Shown: one piece after another, positions 26,489 through 39,250 of the stretch
Layout of the letters: the number at the start of each line of letters is the position of its first letter
How positions within the stretch are numbered: position 1 is the first letter of the stretch
From: Luteolibacter sp.
GTDB lineage: Bacteria > Verrucomicrobiota > Verrucomicrobiia > Verrucomicrobiales > Akkermansiaceae
DNA length: 64,000 nucleotides
Direction of reading: 5' to 3'
Assembly: GCA_040399845.1 (NCBI GenBank)
Contig: JBBARN010000007.1
Location: 8,071 to 72,070 of the forward strand
Made by a program: the position numbers and the translations under genes
The notes under the pieces: model-generated
Databases searched by the model: none
What the model was told of the DNA's origin: nothing
The model's input: the letters and a program-made list of their open reading frames with translations, nothing else

Positions 26489-26665
26489 ACCGCTTGGTGC
26501 TCAGGAAGCTCGGTTTGAATCAACACAGGATTCTCGGACGGTATCACGATGCAACACGTTGATGAACAATTTCCGAGCAATTCAGCGCACTTCTGAATCC
26601 GCAAATCTTGCTTTTCCACCAGAAGAAACCAAGCCGCAAATCACTGATTGCCAACAAGTTCCAAC

Positions 26666-26712
26666 TGGTAGTCCCGACAGGAATCGAACCTGTACCTACG
26701 GCTTCGGAGGCC
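26666..26712 (-). tRNA. 3' fragment of tRNA-Arg(CCG), an att core rather than an intact gene
   Basis: Reverse complement GGC-CTCCGAA-GCCGT AGGT ACAGG-TTCGATT-CCTGT CGGGACT ACCA; no D arm or 5' acceptor strand upstream. Confidence 0.85.
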
Positions 26713-26729
26713 ATGTTTGCGACTTAGAT

Positions 26730-26811: not shown

Positions 26812-28053
26812 ATGAAAGATCCCGTCACGGTCTCCGAAGTTTCTCACCCGAAATGCTCTCATGCGTGCTTGTATCCAGGCGAGGATGGCAGACGCAAGCG
26901 GAAGTATTTCACCAACGAAACCGATGCCCTCGACTTCGCCAATAAACGGCGGGAGGAACTTGGCATCAACGGCTCCGCCTTCGGAACGATCAACGCCGAT
27001 GAACGCGCCGCGCTGGCATGCTGGCGAGCCTTCGCTACGGACCATGCCGCGCCCGACCTGCTGGTTGTTATCCGCCACTACGTCAAAGAGTGGAAGACCA
27101 AGAGTGGATCAGTGACCATCACCAAAGCACTCAAACGCTACGTCGAACACATCGAGGCGGAAGGCGCGAGCGACCGCCACGTCACCAGTGTCAAGAGCCG
27201 GATTGGTCGTCTCGTCACCGACCATGGCGAAAAGCTTGTCGCCAGTATCGACGAGGGCACGTTCGCCGACTGGCTCAACGGATTGCGCGGCACCCGTGCG
27301 GACAAGGCGGGTGACAAACTTACGCTCACCACGCGGGACAATCTCAAAAAAACCTGCCGCACGTTCTTCGCCTACTGCATAGGCCGCGGGTGGGCATCGA
27401 CCAACCCGGTCCCGTTAGCCTCCAAGAAGCAGACCCGCCAACACCGCATCGCCAAGCGCAAGGCACCAGCGATCATGCTGCCGGAGGATGTGAAGAAGTT
27501 CCTCCACAAGATCGAGGAAGTCGCCGCGCCCATCCTGCCGTTCTGGTTGGTCAAGTTCTTCGCCGGCATTCGCGATGCCGAGGCAGACCGGATGGATTGG
27601 AAAATGATCGATCTGAAGTCCGGCTTCATCCACCTGCCCGCCGCGATCACGAAAACTGGGGATGCCCGCAAGGTGAAGATCGAACCGACGCTTGCGGAAT
27701 GGCTGACACCGCTGGCCAAGAAATCCGGTCCCATCGCCCCAGCCACCACGCCTCGTCGCTACTGGTATAAGAAAGTCCTCCGCCACCTTCGCGCGCCGAA
27801 GACGAAAGGCGGCAAACCGCAGGTGTTCGTTTTTCCCTCTAACGCCGCCCGCCATAGCTTCGGGACCTATCACCTGTTTCACTTTCGCGATCCCGGCGAG
27901 ACGGCGATCCAACTTGGCCACAAAGGCAATCCGTCGATGCTTTGGGAGCACTACGCCAACTCGGCAGCCGAAGAGCACGCCGGGGCATTCTGGGAGATCC
28001 GCACGAGCAAGGAGAAGGTTGTGAACATCAGCAAGGGAAGGAGGACGGCGTGA
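26812..28053 (+). CDS. Tyrosine recombinase/integrase
   Basis: FFAGIRDAE (R), KTGDARKV (K), ARHSFGTY (H..R region), LGHKGNPSMLWEHY (H, Y). Confidence 0.9.
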   Translation: MKDPVTVSEVSHPKCSHACLYPGEDGRRKRKYFTNETDALDFANKRREELGINGSAFGTINADERAALACWRAFATDHAAPDLLVVIRHYVKEWKTKSGSVTITKALKRYVEHIEAEGASDRHVTSVKSRIGRLVTDHGEKLVASIDEGTFADWLNGLRGTRADKAGDKLTLTTRDNLKKTCRTFFAYCIGRGWASTNPVPLASKKQTRQHRIAKRKAPAIMLPEDVKKFLHKIEEVAAPILPFWLVKFFAGIRDAEADRMDWKMIDLKSGFIHLPAAITKTGDARKVKIEPTLAEWLTPLAKKSGPIAPATTPRRYWYKKVLRHLRAPKTKGGKPQVFVFPSNAARHSFGTYHLFHFRDPGETAIQLGHKGNPSMLWEHYANSAAEEHAGAFWEIRTSKEKVVNISKGRRTA

Positions 28054-28937: not shown

Positions 28938-31220
28938 ATGGCCCGATACAAATCATCTACGGTTACTGCGCCGCTGCCGCAGCGCACGCTCGATTACCTG
29001 GAGCGTGGTGCGCCCGAGGGTCAGCGCAACGCCGAACTCTTTGACGCCGCTTGCCAGATGCGCGACGCCAGCCAGTCCATCAAGGAGGCCGAGTCCAACT
29101 TGGTGGCGCGCGCCGTCGCCGATGGATTGAGCGATGCCGAGGCCAAGAAGACTATTCAATCCGCTTACAACCACGCGGCCCGTGAGCCGGTGTCACTGGC
29201 TGCGGAGGGTCCTACCATCCCTCCGGAGCCGCGGTGCGTCACCAGGATGCCTGAGCCGATCAACTCTGGATTGCCAATGCTTCTAGCCACCTGCTTCCGT
29301 CCCGACGAGTTCGTCGCTATTGCTCCTATGGCCGAGGATCTTGGTGGTGAAGTCGCACCGCGTCGTGGCGTAACACTCACCGCGTCCGTGTGGGAATCCA
29401 AGATGGCCACCAAGGGCGGAATCGAAAAGGTTTTCGGCACCAAGCTCTGTCTGTTCATTCGGATCAATCCGATGATCAAGGACGGGGCTAAAAACGAAGA
29501 CGTCACCGCGTTCCGCCATGTATTGGTCGAGTTCGACTGCGACAAGGACGGCAATGTGATTCCCAAGGAAAAGCAGTATCAGGCAATTCTCGACAGCGGC
29601 ATGCCGGTCGCCGTGTTGATCGACTCAGGCAACAAGAGCCTCCACGCATGGATCCGCGTCGATGCGCCCAATGCCGATGAATACAAGCGCCGTGTGGACA
29701 TCATCTGGAAGTATTTCGAAGGCAGGAATCTCGACAGGCAGAACCGCAATCCGAGTCGCCTCTCACGCTGCCCGGACGGCTGGCGCACCGTCGATGGAGA
29801 GGTTCGCCGCCAATCGTTGCTGGCCATGAATTTCGGAGCCGCATCATGGGATACATGGGAAACTGACCACGCCAAGGTCGATCCACCGTCTGGCTCTTCG
29901 TCTTTGAGTCCCTCGCCGTCCAGAAACGAAGCCATCGAACGGTTTTATTACGATGGCAACGCCCGCTTCCACCTCGATACCGGTGACACGCTTATCCCGT
30001 TGGACCTGCGCAGCGTCGAGAACCATCTCAAATCGTGGGGCATCACCGAAGGGAAATCGATTGCTGATATGATTTGTTCGATCCAGACCGGACGTTTTGT
30101 TCGGCGGACCGAGGATATTCACCGCTCGGGAGCCACAGAACTGCTTGATCGCGCCTATGCTTTGGCATTTGACCCGCAGCAGGCTCCCCCGGAAGACGAA
30201 CTTTGTCTGTGTCTCGGCGTCTACCCGGTCTCAGCCCGCGGCAACCTGACGTGTATCCAGGGAAAATCGAAGGTCGGGAAATCCGCCGTCATCGCCGCCA
30301 TTCTGGGTGCATGCCAACGTGGGAACTACGCATGTTCGGGCGATACCCTTTGCTTCGAATGGCAGGGCAACGACAGTGGCGCGATCATTCATTTGGATAC
30401 TGAACAGAGCGGCGGCGACTGGCATGCATTGGTCCGTCGTTCGGTGAAGCGTTCCGGACTGCCGGCTGTTTCAACAAGGCTTGTTTCCCTGCCGCTGGTT
30501 CGCTTTGCCAGAAGTGAGCGTCTGGCCATTCTTGAGCTGGCACTTGAAAAGGAACTTCAGCGGCAGGGCGGCATCGACATCGTGATCATCGACGGAGTTG
30601 CCGACTTGTGTAGCTCGCCGAACGATGAGGCCGAGTCGCTTGAGCTGATTTCCAGGCTGCACGCTCTCGCCCAAGAGTATCGCGCCGCCATCATCTGCGT
30701 GCTCCATGAGAATCCATCGTCGGTCGAGGGCAAAACGCGAGGCCACCTCGGCAGCGAGCTCAATCGCAAGGCCTTCGCCAACCTGAGAATCGAGAAGGAT
30801 CCGGAAAACTCGATCTCCACCATGTGGGGCATGGACATGCGCAAGCGGGACATCCCTCGTGAGCAGGGTTTCTGTTTCGCATGGGATGAGTCCCGCAAGA
30901 TGCACACCTACTTCGGCCGCTGGCTTTCCCTCAAGATAGACGCACGCAAGCAAAAGTCGGCTGACAACGCCCGTGAGAAGTGGACCACGATCTTTGCCAA
31001 AGCGGCTGAAAGCGGGACGGATGACTCGTGTCCTGTTCTATCGGCGGAGCAAGCGCTTCTGATCATGCGGGACATCGACGGGACAGAAAACACGCCCAAG
31101 GAAGAGACGGTCAAAAAGCAGATGCAGCGTGCTGAAGTCGTTGGTGTCCTGAGAAAAACGGAGCGTGGCAAGTGGGCGCTCAATCCATCGGGACAAACGG
31201 GACAAGATCAGGACACATAG
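28938..31220 (+). CDS. Primase-helicase (PriCT-like, RepB-like primase and AAA_25-like helicase domains)
   Basis: GQRNAELFDAACQ; RHVLVEFD, DSGNKSLHAW, NRNPSRLSRCP; GKSKVGKS Walker A, IIDGVADL Walker B, HENP. Confidence 0.8.
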   Translation: MARYKSSTVTAPLPQRTLDYLERGAPEGQRNAELFDAACQMRDASQSIKEAESNLVARAVADGLSDAEAKKTIQSAYNHAAREPVSLAAEGPTIPPEPRCVTRMPEPINSGLPMLLATCFRPDEFVAIAPMAEDLGGEVAPRRGVTLTASVWESKMATKGGIEKVFGTKLCLFIRINPMIKDGAKNEDVTAFRHVLVEFDCDKDGNVIPKEKQYQAILDSGMPVAVLIDSGNKSLHAWIRVDAPNADEYKRRVDIIWKYFEGRNLDRQNRNPSRLSRCPDGWRTVDGEVRRQSLLAMNFGAASWDTWETDHAKVDPPSGSSSLSPSPSRNEAIERFYYDGNARFHLDTGDTLIPLDLRSVENHLKSWGITEGKSIADMICSIQTGRFVRRTEDIHRSGATELLDRAYALAFDPQQAPPEDELCLCLGVYPVSARGNLTCIQGKSKVGKSAVIAAILGACQRGNYACSGDTLCFEWQGNDSGAIIHLDTEQSGGDWHALVRRSVKRSGLPAVSTRLVSLPLVRFARSERLAILELALEKELQRQGGIDIVIIDGVADLCSSPNDEAESLELISRLHALAQEYRAAIICVLHENPSSVEGKTRGHLGSELNRKAFANLRIEKDPENSISTMWGMDMRKRDIPREQGFCFAWDESRKMHTYFGRWLSLKIDARKQKSADNAREKWTTIFAKAAESGTDDSCPVLSAEQALLIMRDIDGTENTPKEETVKKQMQRAEVVGVLRKTERGKWALNPSGQTGQDQDT

Positions 31221-31285
31221 CATTTGTCCCGCCGCGAAAACGGGACAGGGACACGGCCCCCCTTCTATAAGGGGCCAAGTGTCCC
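31069..31285. repeat. Cluster of GGGACA/TGTCCC hexamers with a central hairpin (putative replication origin)
   Basis: GGGACA at 31069, 31080, 31190, 31199, 31242, 31248; TGTCCC at 31225, 31280; GGCCCC-N10-GGGGCC at 31255-31276. Confidence 0.6.
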
Positions 31286-31925
31286 GCTTCGTTATTCGTC
31301 AGGGAATCAGCAGATCTACCCCCCGAAACTCATACGTCACCAGTACCGACATCAGCGCCATCATCCATCGAACCTCTGGACAACTCCCGAGAAAGAACGA
31401 AACAGCCAAAGGCTGTAACCCATGCGGATCTCGTCAAGGAATTGGCTCAACCGCGTAGAATCAAGGCACCGATGCGGAAGCCGGATGCCTGACCATCAAA
31501 GGAGCGATCTGCCGTCGATCTGACGCGCGGGAGACGATAGGAAGTCTTCTTACCCTCCCACTGCTTTCGGGGATGTTCCGACCCTCGTCCAATTCCCGTG
31601 CAATATTATTTTTTCATTTCCCACATAACGGAGGGTCGAACGGCATCGCCAGGCACTCATTAAACATTGTGAAATCAATGGCTTCCGCTGATTTCGGTTC
31701 TGGGGAAAACGCCCGAAAATGTGGGAAGTTGGGGTTTCTGCTTCCCATTGCTGCGCGCCCATTTGCAAGCGACTGGTTCCAGGGATTTTACTCGAAACAG
31801 GAATTCTCACTGGTCAGTAAAAAATGCATTTCCCATTGAGAACGCAGGATCTCAGTGCCCCTGACTCAGTGTGGGTGAACCGGAATGCTCGGCGACCAGC
31901 GGTTTGCATGGGACCTTGAAGCCGC

Positions 31926-31953
31926 CGCCCAGACCTCGATTTCACCGGCTCAT
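31926..31953 (-). pseudogene. Possible relic of a HipA-family toxin N-terminus
   Basis: ATG overlaps the stop of the upstream XRE gene; removing one base gives MSREIEVWA, then similarity is lost. Confidence 0.3.
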
Positions 31954-32276
31954 GGCTGGGACTTACGTTTCGGCGCGCGCCGCCGTGTTTGACTCAGTCG
32001 GGCATCCTCCAGCTTGCGCCCCAGCACGTCGTCAGTGGCAACCTGAGAGAGGTCGGATTCGAGGCCCAATACCACGAGCACTTGCAGGAGCTTCCCAAGT
32101 GAAGTGCCCGACGATCCTTTCTCCATGAGGTGTAGCGTTGAGCGGCTGATACCAGCCCGCTCCGAGACCAAATCGGCGCTCAGCTGTCGCCGCAGCCGCG
32201 CCAACCGTAAGTTTTCTCCTATCTCGGCCAGCAGACGCCTGTGCTTGGGCAATAAGGTGGTGGTTTCTCTCCCCAT
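31950..32276 (-). CDS. XRE-family HTH protein (HipB-like antitoxin type)
   Basis: GENLRLARLRRQLSADLVSERAGISRSTL..MEKG HTH_3 pattern. Confidence 0.85.
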   Translation of the reverse strand: MGRETTTLLPKHRRLLAEIGENLRLARLRRQLSADLVSERAGISRSTLHLMEKGSSGTSLGKLLQVLVVLGLESDLSQVATDDVLGRKLEDARLSQTRRRAPKRKSQP

Positions 32277-32398
32277 AATGTTTGATACTCTGGACGAAAA
32301 ACTTACTTAATGTCTGAAATGTCAAACATTTTTGATCCGACATTTATTTAAGCTTCGATTGACCATCTGAAAATGACGATGCCAGATAGCGCCTTGAA

Positions 32399-32491
32399 CG
32401 CTTGAAATATCAGGCAATAGTTGGCTGAATGCATTGGTCGTGGCCAATTTTTGGATTATAAGGCCATTTACGCTTGAATTATCGAGCAATA
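32399..32491. promoter_or_regulatory. Two imperfect 21-bp direct repeats (putative operators)
   Basis: CGCTTGAAATATCAGGCAATA (32399-32419) and CGCTTGAATTATCGAGCAATA (32471-32491), 18/21 identical, each with a TTG-N10-CAA dyad. Confidence 0.5.
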
Positions 32492-32556
32492 TGACGATGA
32501 TTTAGCCACTCTTTCCCAAAGGATTCAGATTCTATCCCTTTTTCGCCTGAAAAATC

Positions 32557-32799
32557 ATGCAAACCGAGCAATTGGCTTCCTTAATCAGCTGGCATCGCCG
32601 TCGGGCGGGGCTGAGTCAGGTTGAGCTTGCCCGCCATGCCGGAGTGAGCCGATACGTGGTGCAGGATCTGGAGGCTGGGGCAGGTCGGACCACTTGGGCA
32701 CGGATGCTGCCGGTCCTTCACGCCTTGAATATCCAACTCGTGCCGCAGGGACCGCTAGTGGATGAATGGCTTTCGGAGACGAAGGAGGCTGGATCATGA
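32557..32799 (+). CDS. HipB-like HTH regulator
   Basis: RRRAGLSQVELARHAGVSR...LEAG; first gene of a three-gene coupled operon. Confidence 0.82.
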   Translation: MQTEQLASLISWHRRRAGLSQVELARHAGVSRYVVQDLEAGAGRTTWARMLPVLHALNIQLVPQGPLVDEWLSETKEAGS

Positions 32800-33134
32800 A
32801 CCCGCAACGCAGGGCCATCATTCGCCAGCACAACATCCCGGCCGGTCATCTGGCCGAGTTGGCCACCGGTGGTTGGGGCTTCACTTACATGCCGGGCTAC
32901 GATGGCCCACCGGTGTCGCTGGCGCTGCCGGTGCGGGATGAGCCTTGGATTTTTGCGGATTTTCCGCCGTTTCTGGAAGGCTTGCTACCGGAGGGGCCGC
33001 AGTTGGAAGCCATCCTGCGCAAGCACAAGATCGACCGCGGCGATTGCTTTCGTCAGTTGATGGTTGTGGGGCAGGACGTCGTGGGATCACTCACGGTAGA
33101 GGAATGGTCGGCGGAGGAAGGAGGCGCGGAATGA
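32796..33134 (+). CDS. HipA N-terminal-like protein (HipS-like antitoxin)
   Basis: AG.L....G..FTY...Y.GPPVSLALP...FPPFLEGLLPEG...D.VG motif; ATGA overlap with upstream gene. Confidence 0.8.
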   Translation: MNPQRRAIIRQHNIPAGHLAELATGGWGFTYMPGYDGPPVSLALPVRDEPWIFADFPPFLEGLLPEGPQLEAILRKHKIDRGDCFRQLMVVGQDVVGSLTVEEWSAEEGGAE

Positions 33135-34063
33135 ATATCTGCCCGATCACACTGGAACCAGCGGAAGGTGGCGGGCTTTATTCCCGAGCGGGCTTGCGAT
33201 CTGTGCATCCCCGTTTGGAAAATCTGCTGCCGTTGTATCTGACCCAGGAAGAACAACTCCGAGAAGCGCGGTTGCGTGCGGACAAGATGTCGATCCAAGG
33301 TGTGCAGCCCAAGCTTTCCGCTGTGCTCAAACCGAAGGAAGGCCGCTTCGAGATCGTGGATCGCGGTGGACAATTCATTCTCAAGCCCAACCCACCACCC
33401 TTCGAGGAAGTGCCAGCCAGCGAGGCCTTGACCATGACACTGGCGGAGATCGCCGGGCTCGAAGTGCCGCCTCATGGTCTGGTGCCTGCCAGCGACGGAT
33501 CATGGGTGTATTTCGTCCGGCGCTTCGATAGGGCTGATAGAAACCAACGGCTGCACCAGGAGGACTTCGCGCAGCTCACCGGAGCCGTGCGAGATACCAA
33601 ATACAACAGCTCGCTGGAGCAGATCGCCAAAGTGGTGGAAACTCACTGCACCTTTCCGGCCATCGAGAAAGCCAAGCTCGCGCGCCTGCTGCTGTTCTGT
33701 TTTTTAACCGGAAACGAGGACATGCACCTGAAGAATTTCTCGCTGGTGGTCCGGAAGGGCGTCGTTTGCCTGTCGCCCGCCTACGATCTGCTCAACACCA
33801 CGCTGGTCCTGGGCAATGCATCCGAGGAAAGCGCACTGCCACTGCGGGGCAAAAAGCGCAAACTCACCCGAAGCGACTGGGTGGATTACCTCTGCCGCGA
33901 GCGGCTGGGGCTGCCCACCGCGATCCTCGATCCCATCCTTCACACTCTGGATGCCTCCCGGGATGCGTGGGTTCAGAAAATCGAAAACTCCTATCTCTCC
34001 GCTCCTGCCAAGGCCGGCTACTTGGAAATACTGAACGACCGCCGCTCGCGGTTGTTCGGTTGA
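33131..34063 (+). CDS. HipA-family kinase toxin (HipT-like)
   Basis: MSIQGVQPKLS, FILKP, RRFDR, GNEDMHLKNFSL and LSPAYDLL motifs; ATGA overlap. Confidence 0.88.
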   Translation: MNICPITLEPAEGGGLYSRAGLRSVHPRLENLLPLYLTQEEQLREARLRADKMSIQGVQPKLSAVLKPKEGRFEIVDRGGQFILKPNPPPFEEVPASEALTMTLAEIAGLEVPPHGLVPASDGSWVYFVRRFDRADRNQRLHQEDFAQLTGAVRDTKYNSSLEQIAKVVETHCTFPAIEKAKLARLLLFCFLTGNEDMHLKNFSLVVRKGVVCLSPAYDLLNTTLVLGNASEESALPLRGKKRKLTRSDWVDYLCRERLGLPTAILDPILHTLDASRDAWVQKIENSYLSAPAKAGYLEILNDRRSRLFG

Positions 34064-34081
34064 TGTGAAATAGACAGGAAT

Positions 34082-34360
34082 TCAATACTCCTCGGGGAGC
34101 ATGACACAGGTCGAGGCCCGGTCCCATTCGGTGATGATGTAGATGCGCCGGCCTCCGCCGAGCTTGTAGTAGCTGAGGATGCGGTCGCCGTGGATCAGGG
34201 CATCCTCGTTCGCCTGCTTGTCGCATTCGTCGAGATCACCCCAATCGCCGCAGTGGTGGCGGTGCATGTAGGATGCCAAGTCGATTCCGAGTGCCATCGC
34301 TCCGGGTGTAGCCACGGTTTTCCCGAGCGGGAAACGCGGTTCCATGATTCGGTATGCCAT
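34082..34360 (-). CDS. Conserved mobile-element hypothetical protein
   Basis: FPLG.TVATPGA...RH..GDWGDL...D...NE.AL..G.RILS.Y...IYIITE.DR..T...LPEEY pattern typical of plasmid/ICE small proteins. Confidence 0.75.
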   Translation of the reverse strand: MAYRIMEPRFPLGKTVATPGAMALGIDLASYMHRHHCGDWGDLDECDKQANEDALIHGDRILSYYKLGGGRRIYIITEWDRASTCVMLPEEY

Positions 34361-34366
34361 GGCCGT

Positions 34367-34645
34367 TCAGTCGTTGGTGGTCCCCCATTCCGGATGGCGC
34401 TTGCCGGTGGCGATCAGGCCAGAGGCGAGCATGTCTTCGACCAGTGCCTTCGGCGGCCACTGGCGATGCGGTTTTCCGGTCTGCATCTTGGACGCTCGTG
34501 CTGTGGCCCGACAGTAGGATGGCAGGTCGGCTTCCGGGTTGAAACTGTCGGCCCGCAGTTGGGTCATCAGGTCGGTGGCATCGGTGGCGGAGAATGTCGC
34601 GCCGTCGATGGTGTGGTATTCGGTGTTCATGGTGGTCATTGTCAT
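34367..34645 (-). CDS. Hypothetical protein
   Basis: Tightly spaced in an operon downstream of the amidoligase. Confidence 0.6.
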   Translation of the reverse strand: MTMTTMNTEYHTIDGATFSATDATDLMTQLRADSFNPEADLPSYCRATARASKMQTGKPHRQWPPKALVEDMLASGLIATGKRHPEWGTTND

Positions 34646-34654
34646 TGGTGGAAA

Positions 34655-35461
34655 TCAGGCGGCCAGTTTTTTGGCGCGGGCGGTATAGAATTTGGTGAGC
34701 CCCCTGGCGTCGATGGATTGGAAGAACCACTTCATGCGGTTCATCCCGAGGCCGGTGTCCACCGGGCGGTTGCGGACAGTGGCGGCGGCTTCGGCGGCAT
34801 CGAACATGCGGGCCATCAGACGCACCCAGTTGGTGATCTTAGAGGGATCAGTGGTTCCCGAGTGATGGCGGACCTCCAGCGTTTGGTGGCGGAAGTAGGA
34901 TTGGATGTTCAGCTTTCGATAGCGGCAGGGGTAGAGCTGCTTCATCTGATCCATGTTCCGGCAGGCGTCGATCTTCTGAAAGACCCGGTAGCATTGGCCT
35001 CTGTGATCCTCGCTATCAGAAACGCCGCCCTCAAGGTTCGTGCGGCAGTAGGTGTTGTTGTTGCCCCGGCGTGACTGCGGCTGGAACGTGTCCAGAACAT
35101 CCTCGAATTTGAGCCAGAGCTTGAAGAGATTCTTCACCGCTTTGAGATTCATCGAGCGGGCGTCGAAATGGACGTGAAGTCCGCAGCGCTTGTCCACTTG
35201 GGCACCAGCGGCTTCGAGTGCGGCGGCGGCGATTCTGACTTCCTCGATACCGGCCTCACCTTCGAGAACCGGTGAAACGAGTTCCAAACCGCAGGAGCCG
35301 TCGGTTACGATCTTCCAATACGGAGTGGTGTCGTGGGTGTAGTAGGAGGATTCGACCCGGATGCCTGCGGCTCTCAGGCCCATGACGGCCTGCTCTTTGG
35401 TGATGGTGGAGAGGAATTCAATCTCGACTCCGAAGCGGCGGGACATCAATGGCGTTGTCAT
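34655..35461 (-). CDS. Putative amidoligase (Amidoligase_2 / COOH-NH2 ligase family)
   Basis: RFGVEIEF, WKIVTDGSCGLELVSPVL, CGLHVHF, RYRKLN and EVRHHSGT motifs; ATG 35461 follows the repeated motif. Confidence 0.85.
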   Translation of the reverse strand: MTTPLMSRRFGVEIEFLSTITKEQAVMGLRAAGIRVESSYYTHDTTPYWKIVTDGSCGLELVSPVLEGEAGIEEVRIAAAALEAAGAQVDKRCGLHVHFDARSMNLKAVKNLFKLWLKFEDVLDTFQPQSRRGNNNTYCRTNLEGGVSDSEDHRGQCYRVFQKIDACRNMDQMKQLYPCRYRKLNIQSYFRHQTLEVRHHSGTTDPSKITNWVRLMARMFDAAEAAATVRNRPVDTGLGMNRMKWFFQSIDARGLTKFYTARAKKLAA

Positions 35462-35466
35462 GTCTA

Positions 35467-35497
35467 TCATCTGCCAGATCGATACCAACTGTCCATG
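35467..35497 (-). promoter_or_regulatory. Repeated promoter-like motif, copy 1
   Basis: CATGGAC-N15-GGCAGATGA, 5 nt before the amidoligase ATG. Confidence 0.65.
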
Positions 35498-35621
35498 GCT
35501 TTCTATCCTTACTAACAAAAAGACGAAAGCCGCTTGATTGGCATTGATCGTGACGCTTAAGCACCGTGCCAATGTGGCATCTTTCGGAGATTCGATAACT
35601 CCGACAGAAAGACAAAAAAGA

Positions 35622-35652
35622 CATGGACAGTGGTGATGGGACTGGCAGATGA
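35622..35652 (+). promoter_or_regulatory. Repeated promoter-like motif, copy 2
   Basis: CATGGAC-N15-GGCAGATGA, 6 nt before ATG 35659. Confidence 0.65.
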
Positions 35653-35658
35653 GGGACG

Positions 35659-35877
35659 ATGAAAGGGACTGCCCACACTGGAAATGACACCACCTACGTC
35701 ACCGGAATGTTGGTCCTGATCCGCCCCGAGTGGGATGGAGACGAAACGCTTCATGTGATTGCCGAATGGAACGGCGACCGCGGATTCATCCGGCCTGTCG
35801 AATGGCCGCACGGCGGGATCATCCCGACCGAACTCGTCACCGCTGAGATGATCCAATCCGCAACCATAAACCCCTGA
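35659..35877 (+). CDS. Small hypothetical protein
   Basis: Directly follows motif copy 2. Confidence 0.6.
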   Translation: MKGTAHTGNDTTYVTGMLVLIRPEWDGDETLHVIAEWNGDRGFIRPVEWPHGGIIPTELVTAEMIQSATINP

Positions 35878-35884
35878 AAACACC

Positions 35885-36076
35885 ATGTACACCGCCAGTG
35901 AAATAGACGCCATGACCATCGAGGAAATCGAACAAGTCGCCGAACTGCTCACCGATGAAGCCCGCGAGGAATGGGCTGCCGCCGGATATTCCGGCGAGTC
36001 CTACTGCAATCTCGGAATGAACGACGCCGAGAAATCCATCAACTCCCCGACGAAGACATCTAACTCCAACCCCTGA
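35885..36076 (+). CDS. Small acidic hypothetical protein
   Basis: 7-bp gaps to both neighbours; strongly acidic. Confidence 0.55.
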   Translation: MYTASEIDAMTIEEIEQVAELLTDEAREEWAAAGYSGESYCNLGMNDAEKSINSPTKTSNSNP

Positions 36077-36082
36077 GATCCC

Positions 36083-36784
36083 ATGAAATCTGAATCAGAC
36101 ATCCTCGATAAAATCCGCAAACTCCTGCGACTGGCCGACCGCTCCCGCGGGTCCACCGAGAACGAAGCGAAAGTGGCGCTGGCCAAGGCGCAGGAATTGA
36201 TGACCCGCCACAACATCGACTCGGCGCTGCTCCGCATGGAACGTGGCGAATCGGGCGGCGCGGGTTTCACCGTCAACAAGGGCAAGGTCGATCTGCCGAA
36301 GACCCTCAACCCTGCCGACCTGATGATCCTCTCGATCCTGCAGGCGCACTTCAACGTGAAGACAATCCTGATGCCCAATGGTAGGGGAACTCCGGTGGAC
36401 ATCATCGGTGCCGCCGCCGACATCGACTTCGCAATCTACGCTTTCAACTACTTGCGGCAGACATTCTTCCGCTGTTGGAACGAGTTCAAACGGACCCACG
36501 CCAACCCGGACAAGGCATCTTACTACCGGGGCCTGCGCGACGGACTGAACTCCGAACTCAAGGCGGCGAAACAACGCGCCGAGCAATCCTACGCCGCCGA
36601 CCAGCGCCAGGCATACGGACTGGTCGTCGTGGATCAGGAAGCGGCGATCACCCGCTATGTCGAAGATGCATACGGCAAGCTCCGCACCCTTTCGCAACGC
36701 CGCCGCCACCTCCATTCCGGCAGCTACGTCGCCGGAGAAACCAAGGGTCGCACCATCCAAATCAACCGCCCACTACCATCATGA
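36083..36784 (+). CDS. DUF2786-like domain protein
   Basis: ILDKIRKLLRLA...ENEAKVALAKAQELMTRHNI N-terminal motif. Confidence 0.78.
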   Translation: MKSESDILDKIRKLLRLADRSRGSTENEAKVALAKAQELMTRHNIDSALLRMERGESGGAGFTVNKGKVDLPKTLNPADLMILSILQAHFNVKTILMPNGRGTPVDIIGAAADIDFAIYAFNYLRQTFFRCWNEFKRTHANPDKASYYRGLRDGLNSELKAAKQRAEQSYAADQRQAYGLVVVDQEAAITRYVEDAYGKLRTLSQRRRHLHSGSYVAGETKGRTIQINRPLPS

Positions 36785-36813
36785 AAATCATCCAACAGAA
36801 AGACGAAAAAAGA

Positions 36814-36844
36814 CATGGACGTGCCCGATCAGACGGGCAGATGA
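36814..36844 (+). promoter_or_regulatory. Repeated promoter-like motif, copy 3
   Basis: CATGGAC-N15-GGCAGATGA, 8 nt before ATG 36853; upstream ACAGAAAGAC(G)AAAAAAGA shared with copy 2. Confidence 0.65.
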
Positions 36845-36852
36845 GGGATGCT

Positions 36853-37083
36853 ATGACAACAATATTCATTTCTAACACCTATTTGAACAAGGCGATGCAG
36901 CGAAGTATTCGCGGTCTTGAGAGGAACGGCTTCACCGCCCGGCGCATCATGCCGGTCGATCCGATGGCCGGCATTCATGCCCGCGAGTTCCACGCCAACT
37001 TCGCCAAGCAAACTCCCACTGGACTGCTGGTGTTCAGCGTCCGGATCGACACCGACGGCAACGTCACCAACCCCAAACCATAA
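36853..37083 (+). CDS. Small hypothetical protein
   Basis: Follows motif copy 3; in frame with track ORF 36475..37083. Confidence 0.6.
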   Translation: MTTIFISNTYLNKAMQRSIRGLERNGFTARRIMPVDPMAGIHAREFHANFAKQTPTGLLVFSVRIDTDGNVTNPKP

Positions 37084-37089
37084 CCAACC

Positions 37090-37614
37090 ATGAAAAAACT
37101 GTATTGGATCGTCTGCGACGACAAGGATCATACCCTATTCGAAGGCCGCTATCAGGGTCGCACCCGCGGTGAGGCGCTGAAGTTCCTCAAACTAACCATC
37201 GGGCGAAAGAACCTCAATGGATTGGTCTTCACCATCACCGAAATCCCGGTGCCGCTGATCCGCGAAATCGTCGCGGAAATCCTCGCCGGTGGAGACGGGA
37301 ATAATGCCGCGCAAACCTCGAAGGTCGCGCCCATCACCGGGCCTGCGAAGGAGCCGCGATCTGAACGCTTCGATGCATTCGCCGACACTACAAGACCGCA
37401 GCCTGCGACCGCAAAGGCCAGAGCCCCTAAAGCCAAGGTGAAGTCGCCTAAACCCAGCATGAAGTCCTGCAACCCCGGCTATGGAGACGAGTTCTGGGCA
37501 CAGGTCCGCGCCTATTGGCGGGAATGCCGCAGCCTGATGAAAACAGCCAGGCAATTCAAACTTTCACCCAACACGCTGAAAACCCGCATCCGCAGGGAGG
37601 GCTGGAAACAATGA
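37090..37614 (+). CDS. Hypothetical protein with C-terminal HTH-like segment
   Basis: SLMKTARQFKLSPNTLKTRIRREGW resembles an HTH. Confidence 0.6.
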   Translation: MKKLYWIVCDDKDHTLFEGRYQGRTRGEALKFLKLTIGRKNLNGLVFTITEIPVPLIREIVAEILAGGDGNNAAQTSKVAPITGPAKEPRSERFDAFADTTRPQPATAKARAPKAKVKSPKPSMKSCNPGYGDEFWAQVRAYWRECRSLMKTARQFKLSPNTLKTRIRREGWKQ

Positions 37615-37946
37615 GTGCTCCCCATTGGATACCCACTGTCGGTGGTGGTGCGACAGTCTGCCACTACAGCGACCGGACCGCCTGCACCATCATCCGCATC
37701 AGTCCGAGCGGCAAAACCATCTGGATGCGGAAGGACACTGCCGTTCTCGACGACTGGAAATCCGAGTTCGTCGCCGGTGGATTCGCCGGCCATTGCGTGA
37801 ACAACACCGAGCAAGCTTACAAATACTCGCCCAATCCCGAAGGGGCCGTTCATCGCGCCAGCCTCCGCAAGGATGGTTGGTTCCGCACTACCAACGGCGA
37901 GCCGGTCATCCCCGGCCGCCGCCACTTCCACGACTACAACTTCTGA
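37611..37946 (+). CDS. Phage-type hypothetical protein
   Basis: ATGA overlap; VGGGAT...SDRTACTIIRIS pattern. Confidence 0.6.
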   Translation: MSAPHWIPTVGGGATVCHYSDRTACTIIRISPSGKTIWMRKDTAVLDDWKSEFVAGGFAGHCVNNTEQAYKYSPNPEGAVHRASLRKDGWFRTTNGEPVIPGRRHFHDYNF

Positions 37947-38185
37947 TGAAGGTCGAAGTCGAAAAATACCGCAAACCCGATGGCTACGCCACGCGCTACT
38001 GGTCGGTCGTGGTGGATGGCGAACTGCTCGCCGTCACCCTCTACCGCAAGGGCGCGGAGGCCGTCGCCCGGGCCATCACCAACACCAACTCAGATCCCCA
38101 TGTCACGTTCCTTGAAGATTCTGCCAACCCCGCCGCCACGCCCCACAAGCCCACCGCTGGCCTGGCGACCTACCGGACCCGATGA
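37946..38185 (+). CDS. Small hypothetical protein
   Basis: TGATG coupling; its 3' end overlaps the AAA gene start. Confidence 0.5.
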   Translation: MKVEVEKYRKPDGYATRYWSVVVDGELLAVTLYRKGAEAVARAITNTNSDPHVTFLEDSANPAATPHKPTAGLATYRTR

Positions 38186-38768
38186 CCTCTGCGGCTCAGC
38201 CGCTACCATCGCCGCCCGCCTGATCGCCAAAGCCCGCAAGCTCCACGACGATCCGACCGTCCCGTTGAAAATACTGCTCTACGGGCCGCCCGGTGTCGGC
38301 AAAACCAGCATCGCCGACATGGTGGCCGATGGGCTTTCCGGCACCCGCTTCGCCGTCGAAGAGTTCAACGGCAAGCTCGTCACCGTCGAGGTGGTGAAAC
38401 AGTGGATGGGCGCGCTCGGTGCCTGCTCGCTGTTCGGTGTCTATTCCGTGAAGATCATTAACGAAATGGACCGCTGCACGCGGGATGCACAGGACTTGCT
38501 CCTGATTTATCTCGACCGCCTGCCGCCAGGGCGTGCGGTGATCGGCACCAGCAACCTGCATCTCGACCTGCTCACCGAGCGGTTCCAGACGCGCTTCCAG
38601 TCGATCAAGCTCGCGGCCCCTTCCACCGAGGACATCGCCGACCTGCTCCGCCGCCACTGGCCGGTTGATCAGGCCACGGCACTCCGCATCGCGGTCGGCA
38701 GCGGTGGATCCGTGCGGGCCGCGCTTGCCGATCTGGAATCCTGGCTGGATGCGGAGGGACTGTCATGA
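38100..38768 (+). CDS. AAA+ ATPase, clamp-loader/RarA-like core
   Basis: LAWRPTGPDDLCG, GPPGVGKT Walker A, IINEMD Walker B, GTSN sensor-1, FQTRF and GSVRAAL motifs. Confidence 0.8.
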   Translation: MSRSLKILPTPPPRPTSPPLAWRPTGPDDLCGSAATIAARLIAKARKLHDDPTVPLKILLYGPPGVGKTSIADMVADGLSGTRFAVEEFNGKLVTVEVVKQWMGALGACSLFGVYSVKIINEMDRCTRDAQDLLLIYLDRLPPGRAVIGTSNLHLDLLTERFQTRFQSIKLAAPSTEDIADLLRRHWPVDQATALRIAVGSGGSVRAALADLESWLDAEGLS

Positions 38769-39250
38769 ATCAGGACGACATCACTCATTCACGACAGCCG
38801 ATCATCCTGCTTGATCTCAACTACACTCTCGTCGCCAACAGCCCGCTTCACGGTAGAGCACCCAAGCGCATGGAGAAACGCCTTGCCGATGAGCAATACC
38901 GCCAGTGGCTCGTCGATCTTGTTCGTCCCTACACCGTCATCTTGATGACCGCACGCCCGGGAACATGGATGATCAAAACCATCGACCGCATCGAGGATCA
39001 AACCGGCTGGCGACCACAGGACGCGTGCTTCGCGCCTAAAGGCTGGTGGAAGCCGCCTGCGATCAAACAGCACATGCTCATAAAGAATGTGTTCCCGATT
39101 CACGGCGAGGACGCCCGCTACATTGCGATTGAGAGCAATCCCCGGACCCGTGACATGTATGCCAAATTCGGCATTCCTTGTTTCTGGGTGATTGAGCAAG
39201 GCACCTGCCTGACCGAAGGAACGCGCATCGTCAAACGGGTGCCTCCATAG
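38765..39250 (+). CDS. HAD-superfamily protein (PNKP-phosphatase-like)
   Basis: ILLDLNYTLV motif I variant, MTARP motif II, IK, AIESN; ATGA overlap with the AAA gene. Confidence 0.65.
   Translation: MNQDDITHSRQPIILLDLNYTLVANSPLHGRAPKRMEKRLADEQYRQWLVDLVRPYTVILMTARPGTWMIKTIDRIEDQTGWRPQDACFAPKGWWKPPAIKQHMLIKNVFPIHGEDARYIAIESNPRTRDMYAKFGIPCFWVIEQGTCLTEGTRIVKRVPP

Follow-up and report, generated by a model that had tools for sequence, protein, structure and literature searches.

An amidoligase gene block in a Luteolibacter element, read as a probable co-regulated mosaic region of temperate Verrucomicrobiaceae phages

Gene cassettes of phages and prophages built around an Amidoligase_2 ligase were reportedly predicted by Iyer et al. 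in 2009, with class-II glutamine amidotransferase and gamma-glutamylcyclotransferase genes as the partners of the ligase, and annotated examples occur in Bacillus and Porphyromonas phages. To our knowledge, no product has been assigned to any phage amidoligase cassette since that prediction. A variant of these cassettes is described here in a 64,000-nucleotide (nt) stretch of Luteolibacter sp. DNA (hereafter the window; assembly GCA_040399845.1, contig JBBARN010000007.1, positions 8,071 to 72,070), where the genes for an amidoligase and two small companions, L2 and L3, run leftward and divergently from nine rightward genes (R1 to R7, an AAA+ ATPase and a HAD-like gene) in a block at positions 34082-39250 of the window. 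The reading that we favour, with a probability of about 60%, is that of a co-regulated mosaic region, accessory or middle, of temperate tailed Verrucomicrobiaceae phages, which carries an amidoligase-L2-L3 variant of the cassette. Taken as a whole the block is ordinary phage mosaicism; what is newly recognised, as judged from sequence comparison, is the conserved pairing of the phage amidoligase with the small partner L2.

The block shares with the classical cassettes the ligase family and the phage-borne setting. Its amidoligase (34655-35461, minus strand), which leads the leftward unit, matched PF12224 across positions 2-244 of 245 (E=1.2e-38; 133.8 bits for a cutoff of 22) and also phrog_2443 (E=2e-43), and is, by its sequence, an Amidoligase_2 member, a carboxylate-amine ligase of the glutamine-synthetase fold. 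The block differs from those cassettes in that no glutamine amidotransferase or gamma-glutamylcyclotransferase appeared among its Pfam matches, an absence already pointed out in an original prediction made from the DNA letters, the partners being instead L2 (34367-34645, minus strand; 92 amino acids (aa), with a conserved core at residues 8-80) and the plasmid-type L3 (34082-34360, minus strand; 92 aa). A further difference is that the amidoligase unit has its own copy of a promoter-like motif specific to the lineage. Part of the block recurs as a diverged copy on contig C243 (4449 bases) of the same genome, which holds on one strand, in this order, homologues of R5, R7 and AAA+, an Ntn-type (MC...) glutamine amidotransferase-like gene, a 331-aa amidoligase gene and an ATP-dependent DNA ligase gene, so that the amidoligase of this copy does have an amidotransferase-like neighbour of the classical kind.

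An exhaustive search of 1.84 billion proteins gathered the L2 family into 56 representative clusters, and L2 itself had no plasmid match and no named family in the libraries searched. Eight distant members of the family were looked up, five of which (contigs L137 to L141) could be read for 390 nt or more upstream. In these five contigs without exception, an amidoligase gene (E values from 1e-31 to 2e-85 with an amidoligase hidden Markov model) lay directly upstream of the L2 homologue, which is about 38-46% identical to L2. The gene that follows L2 was an L3 homologue in L139 and L141, and a gamma-glutamylcyclotransferase-like gene of the GGACT/AIG2_2 kind in L138, L140 and the contig of protein P0137, so that distant relatives linked to L2 do carry the classical partner right behind it. 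L140, a contig that is phage-like and 55.7 kb long, encodes a serine recombinase, which points to a different phage lineage. On this genomic evidence, the amidoligase-L2 pair is the sole part of the block with signs of functional linkage beyond shared descent. L2 was also found in a clean fusion with the rightward gene R6 in the metagenomic protein P0142 (L2 at residues 3-80, R6 at residues 81-173). Separately, four to six weak L2-like domain repeats were seen in each of three larger proteins, P0146 (2032 aa), P0160 (641 aa) and P0176 (591 aa).

The third member of the cassette has a very different distribution. Homologues of L3 (about 45% identity) were found by tblastn on 195 PLSDB plasmids, 82 of them conjugative, and in six phages, among them a jumbo phage and Bacillus phages. 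The L3 family, with the invariant signature RHH.GDWGD...ITE.DR..T..LPEEY, goes at NCBI by the erroneous name 'type I restriction endonuclease subunit M'. L3 drew no match from Pfam, NCBIfam, PHROG or PADLOC, a word-based homologue search returned close relatives only, and the AlphaFold model (predicted local distance difference test, pLDDT, 88.6) gave nothing significant in a Foldseek search of the PDB (best E=0.14). PDB sequence searches with L3, L2, R6 and the HAD-like protein gave no matches either, and NCBIfam and PADLOC were likewise silent on the small proteins of the block. In a Vibrio MOBF plasmid, the L3 copy lies between hok/gef and traI, a position that we read as the plasmid leading region, and leading regions are enriched in anti-defence genes (PMC11541004). 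One plasmid match, H31 (NZ_CP063359.1, 15287-15556), places an L3 homologue inside a DUF6094 domain-containing gene and may be a fusion.

A mechanism for the cassette can be proposed from these elements. The amidoligase and L2 would together make an ATP-dependent amide bond, probably of the gamma-glutamyl type, as suggested by the fold of the enzyme and by the classical gamma-glutamylcyclotransferase partner, and L3, typical of plasmids and phage early regions, would replace this cyclotransferase in the present lineage. The most likely role of the cassette would be counter-defence or host modification. A bolder version, which we regard as quite unlikely, takes the amidoligase and L2 as the core of an unrecognised phage-borne system for protein or peptide ligation, where L2 (and R6, which can be fused to it) would be a substrate or adaptor, the third position would be filled by either a gamma-glutamylcyclotransferase or L3, L3 would tie the system to a large 'GDWG' family of plasmids and phage early regions, and the whole would serve as a counter-defence device.

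The twelve genes foreseen in the original prediction, three leftward and nine rightward, were all confirmed as intact open reading frames (ORFs) at 34082-39250, and their tight coupling was borne out by gaps of -4 to +9 nt within units, with the exception of an overlap of 85-86 nt between R7 and the start of AAA+. The sequence suggests three transcription units: amidoligase-L2-L3 leftward, and R1 to R3 and R4 to the HAD-like gene rightward, on the plus strand. No convincing terminators were found. The amidoligase starts at 35461, with its ATG kept across loci. Pairwise ratios of nonsynonymous to synonymous substitution (dN/dS) against homologues were 0.09-0.19 for ten of the twelve genes (L3, 0.13; L2, 0.09; amidoligase, 0.15; R1, 0.19; R2, 0.09; R3, 0.10; R5, 0.16). 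The two others had higher values: about 0.38 for R4 (36853-37083; 76 aa, no assigned function) in its own frame, starting at 36853, compared with about 1 or above in the five other frames, and 0.40 for R7 (37946-38185; about 80 aa) over 37950-38100, whereas in its tail (38100-38185), which overlaps the start of AAA+, the constrained frame among the six tested was that of AAA+. Altogether, these values indicate that all twelve look like real genes under purifying selection.

What ties the three units together is a bipartite motif with the consensus aaaGAcGAAAAAaGACATGGAC-N15-tGGCAGAT, the first box of which can alternatively be rendered as in GACATGGAC-N15-tGGCAGAT, with a 15-nt spacer of constant length and variable sequence, and an ATG 6-10 nt downstream. 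Two copies belong to a 43-nt repeat that pairs 35614-35656 with 36806-36848, one of them (35622-35652, plus strand) 6 nt ahead of the ATG of R1 and the other (36814-36844, plus strand) within the 68-nt gap between R3 and R4, 8 nt ahead of the ATG of R4. A pattern search revealed a third copy (35467-35497, minus strand) ahead of the amidoligase, reading CATGGAC-N15-GGCAGATGA, and a simple sigma-70 scan called TGGACA-18-GATGAT exactly there. The shared motif of the original prediction is real and stronger than it was described, and it heads three units and not two. The same search showed that almost every related locus has the motif at these three kinds of site, and elsewhere in the 6.9-Mb genome a relaxed pattern found only scattered one-mismatch matches outside any such context. 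The motif was absent from two more distant relatives, locus L115 and contig C243. We infer that it is a promoter or operator heading the three units. Its short and fixed distance to the ATG suggests leaderless messengers or messengers with a very short leader, and we know of no promoter described for Verrucomicrobial phages. A reading of the motif as RNA structure was dropped, alifold having predicted no consensus structure. The three units might be switched on together, perhaps through the helix-turn-helix protein R5 or a host factor, and one shared promoter-like motif together with a constant gene order makes the co-expressed programme of the original prediction plausible.

A comparison with 59 related loci, 17 from Verrucomicrobial metagenome-assembled genomes (with Luteolibacter, Haloferula or Akkermansiaceae labels) and 42 from IMG/VR, showed where such a block belongs. 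The loci were retrieved with the amidoligase protein, which is at least 74% identical in all of them, and gene presence was scored by tblastn. L3, L2 and the amidoligase were each present in 56-57 of the 59 loci, R3 to R9 in 39-52 (R3, 52; R4, 47; R5, 49; R7, 46), and R1 and R2 in about 20. Clustered gene maps revealed a constant gene order, and the genes that flank the block in the window recurred in none of the 59 loci, except for the primase and Hip genes in phage contig L051. In full-length relatives, the block sits between a replication module (AAA_24, DUF2800/PD-(D/E)XK nuclease, ResIII/SNF2 helicase and primase) and a packaging module, and in most loci AAA+ is followed on its 3' side by a ParB_N protein, a 530-aa ParB-N/methylase, the HAD-like gene, a CmoA-like methylase, a 219-aa gene and a large terminase of the gpA type. 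The Pfam content of one such relative (L001) comprises gpA terminase, methylase, ParB_N, ResIII helicase, DUF2800 and AAA_24; L051 carries an M15 peptidase and a lambda-type portal, and locus L013 is a 56-kb prophage bounded by two tRNA-Tyr end copies. In another full phage of the family (L005:1100-9100), an inserted integrase plus Prim-Pol/DUF5906 element adjoins the DUF2786 gene, a second copy of which has exact stretches of up to 72 nt in common with the first.

The original prediction had also put the genes forward as a candidate undescribed module and had set co-occurrence elsewhere, to be sought around amidoligase homologues, as its check. Co-occurrence was indeed found, with the same order in about 40-57 of the 59 loci. 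The wider neighbourhood check went the other way: among 20 more distant Verrucomicrobiota Amidoligase_2 loci examined with their flanks, none had L2, L3 or R genes as neighbours except L115, where L3 (shifted upstream), the amidoligase and L2 occur together, along with R5, ParB/methylase genes and the HAD-like gene. In cultured phages, lone amidoligases were found in varied places, as well as lone homologues of R6 and L3. Distant loci that do not have the block genes and lone homologues in cultured phages argue that the synteny is mostly inherited within one lineage and, with parts of separate affinities, the single module gives way to a probable mosaic of sub-modules rather than one pathway.

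The rightward genes illustrate these separate affinities. R1 (35659-35877; 72 aa) and R2 (35885-36076; 63 aa) occupy a variable slot, which in other loci is filled by a gene resembling ATP-dependent DNA ligases (C32, 259 aa) or by different small genes; this slot, from the second motif copy to the DUF2786 gene, is a cassette site, with an extra motif copy in some loci. R3 (36083-36784) belongs to DUF2786 (PF10979; E=1e-16, 61 bits for a cutoff of 23.9) and DUF7168 (PF23771; E=2.4e-12, 47.1 bits for a cutoff of 25.5), and proteins with DUF2786 are known from phage replication modules (PMC9206674). R5 (37090-37614; 174 aa) has an N-terminal domain that is conserved, a linker that varies and, at its C-terminus, a helix-turn-helix that matched HTH_30 below the Pfam cutoff (E=7e-4), which makes it a candidate regulator. 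R6 (37611-37946) is a 111-aa domain corresponding to the C-terminal half of phrog_19789 (E=3.7e-21), and in cultured phages this domain forms the C-terminal half of 184-aa proteins. An L2-like N-terminal half in PHROG 19789 proteins was tested and ruled out.

AAA+ (38100-38768, with the start at or before 38100) matched PF00004 (E=1.3e-8) and, at positions 39-208 of 394, the NCBIfam model of DNA polymerase III delta' (E=4e-10; 39.5 bits for a cutoff of 300), with PDB matches to 8g28 and to replication factor C (RFC, 1sxj_C). Its Walker A (GPPGVGKT), a variant Walker B (IINEMD) and ERF in the place of SRC were invariant in 33 sequences. The protein resembles clamp-loader subunits (Pol III delta', RFC small subunit) in its best profile matches, its Walker A and the arginine at the SRC position, but differs in its size of about 200-220 residues, in the NEMD of Walker B and in the absence of the C-terminal collar domain, the chain stopping behind the lid domain, at a length of about 222 aa. 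It looks like a minimal ATPase of clamp-loader (delta'/RFC) type, which was not filed as a member of the family because its scores fall far below the cutoffs. PADLOC matches in the block were limited to those of AAA+ to the P-loop stretches of IetA, DolB and TRIP13. The DUF2786 protein, the small proteins and this collar-less ATPase might serve as accessories of DNA replication.

The last gene of the block, HAD-like (38765-39250), is also the last with similarity to the related phages. It matched phrog_32036 (E=7e-25) and, weakly, PHROG 415 (PNK; E=0.0023), and no Pfam family. Its motif I reads D17-L-N19-Y-T21, with N19 invariant in 14 sequences, and so departs from the DxDx(T/V) signature. 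The best Foldseek match of its AlphaFold model, no more than suggestive, was the T4 Pnkp phosphatase (E=8e-3; TM-score 0.21). The sole cultured relative, gp4 ('phosphatase') of Gordonia phage Evaa, is 37% identical and has DLHYT (DxHxT) as motif I. Around gp4, Evaa carries a ParB-like gene, a ParB-N/methylase, a methylase and a terminase, the same neighbours in the same pre-terminase order as in the full Verrucomicrobial relatives, and the ParB-N/methylase is 46% identical between both (E=2e-155) and the methylase 26% (E=2e-18). This shared neighbourhood indicates that the HAD-like gene belongs to a pre-terminase ParB/methylase module. In contrast with Evaa gp1-gp6, the window retains only the HAD-like gene of that module, the ParB genes, both methylases and the terminase being absent. 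The HAD-like protein would act with the ParB/methylase genes before packaging, and in the window it would be an orphan. The set of ParB-like, ParB-N/methylase, HAD-like and CmoA-like methylase genes was observed across phyla, at L001:2688-6163 and in L136 (Evaa 226-5606).

Several points weigh against the co-regulated mosaic reading and its amidoligase cassette. Both the promoter and the co-expression are read from the DNA alone, the second box of the motif fits a sigma-70 -10 element poorly, and a GAGGGA Shine-Dalgarno-like stretch in the rightward copies argues against strictly leaderless messengers. HAD membership of the last gene is weak, with its lack of a Pfam match and a poor structural model (pLDDT 54). 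The distant L2 contigs are short and only eight were sampled, the L2-R6 fusion is a single case and the R6 domains of cultured phages follow unrelated N-terminal halves. Finally, the presence of L3 on plasmids that lack any amidoligase suggests that it may be only loosely tied to the ligase.

The carrier of the block in the window is an integrase-bearing element of about 12.7 kb with no late genes. On its left side, a 46-nt 3' fragment of a tRNA-Arg(CCG) gene (26669-26714, minus strand) is followed by a tyrosine integrase (26812-28053), a primase/AAA_25 helicase (28938-31220), an Xre-type helix-turn-helix gene (31950-32276, minus strand), HipB (32557-32799), an ORF for a HipA N-domain (32766-33134; 122 aa) and a HipA kinase (33131-34063; 310 aa). 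This three-ORF Hip locus (32557-34063) resembles the tripartite HipBST more than the classical HipBA, and is 89-95% identical in L051. From position 28973 to 39243 the window DNA is colinear with L051, and the homology stops cleanly at the stop codon of the intact HAD-like gene, beyond which GH42-like and FecR/ECF genes are found. Decayed fragments of an ordinary prophage would have counted against the original prediction; none of the genes is decayed, and the carrier without late genes is either an incomplete prophage or a satellite. No direct repeat of 9 nt or longer was found between the two presumed ends of the element, the tRNA fragment did not recur in the window, and no second attachment-site (att) copy was detected there or on contig C7. 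In an empty-site comparison with 40 relatives, an RlmI-like gene alone was syntenic, on the left, and the right flank had no homologue; in the relatives, the RlmI-like gene does not have the tRNA beside it. On contig C86 (166-329), an intact tRNA-Arg adjoins sequence 89% identical over 89 nt to window positions 26577-26668, and on contig C108 (13999-21588) a further copy of the tRNA fragment marks the start of a second small integrase and primase element. The end of C108 carries tandem GTCACGCTGCCTCCCG repeats that match the beginning of C86. The arrangement beside the integrase of the window resembles an attP that has not recombined, or else a tandem remnant.

Colinearity with a full phage and the lack of late genes point to a prophage that has no late genes or, less likely, to a satellite. 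The latter, an element akin to P4 or to the phage-inducible chromosomal islands (PICIs) that would exploit a helper phage of the L051 type, is in our opinion unlikely, although it is the alternative that survives best. Like such satellites and like defective prophages, the element has an integrase by a tRNA fragment, a primase and helicase in one protein, and no capsid, terminase, portal or other structural gene, so that an integrase and its own replication gene stand without structural genes. The intactness of all its genes, the clean end of phage homology at a stop codon, the similarity of locus L015, which likewise ends 20 nt past the HAD-like gene with non-phage genes following, and the second small element at the same tRNA are all consistent with a satellite. 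In contrast to P4 and PICIs, the element has no att pair in the window or on contig C7 and no recognised genes for capsid redirection or packaging, and no att-bounded unit of the same size was found in other genomes. Moreover, the stretch between its primase and HAD-like genes, both included, is colinear with that of a complete phage (L051), the assembly contains no terminase or methylase homologue of the phage family of the block and thus no helper, and L015 has no definable ends. L013, considered as another short satellite-like form, was ruled out as the 56-kb prophage mentioned above.

A very unlikely explanation places the block in phage DNA hypermodification, with the amidoligase attaching an amino-acid-type group to a modified base while the HAD-like phosphatase and the ParB/methylase proteins would act on DNA ahead of packaging. 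Amidoligase and amidotransferase genes do co-occur with thymidine-hypermodification genes in viral contigs (PMC8989533), and in full relatives the block runs into ParB-like, ParB-N/methylase, HAD-like, CmoA-like methylase and terminase genes. Against this proposal, the 20-kb loci showed no gene for a dUMP hydroxymethylase, 5-HMUDK kinase, aGPT-Pplase or TET/JBP protein, the amidoligase unit is divergent, with about 3 kb between it and the ParB genes, ParB genes are missing but the amidoligase is kept in the window, L051 and L015, and the conserved partner of the ligase is the small protein L2 and not a DNA enzyme.

That all twelve genes serve one dedicated anti-defence or host-takeover pathway on a single substrate, a reading that goes back to the original prediction and might be suggested by one motif heading all units, a gene order constant in about 40 or more loci, an L2-R6 fusion that joins the leftward and rightward units and the enrichment of the L3 family on conjugative plasmids, is the least probable account, given that the 59 loci are all close relatives whose synteny may be inherited, that R genes are absent from distant amidoligase loci, that the HAD-like gene travels with ParB, methylase and terminase genes in an actinophage with no amidoligase in the fetched region, that R1 and R2 are replaceable, and that no match to a known defence family goes beyond the P-loop.

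For the biology of these phages, the co-regulated mosaic region described here would matter mainly through its parts. L2, always beside one ligase subfamily and with L3 or a gamma-glutamylcyclotransferase alternating behind it, makes with its ligase a concrete pair to purify. The L3 family, common on plasmids under a misleading name, with a confident fold and no solved relative, is a reasonable anti-defence candidate. And the bipartite motif, as a putative promoter or operator, would offer a handle on gene regulation in the phages of Verrucomicrobia.

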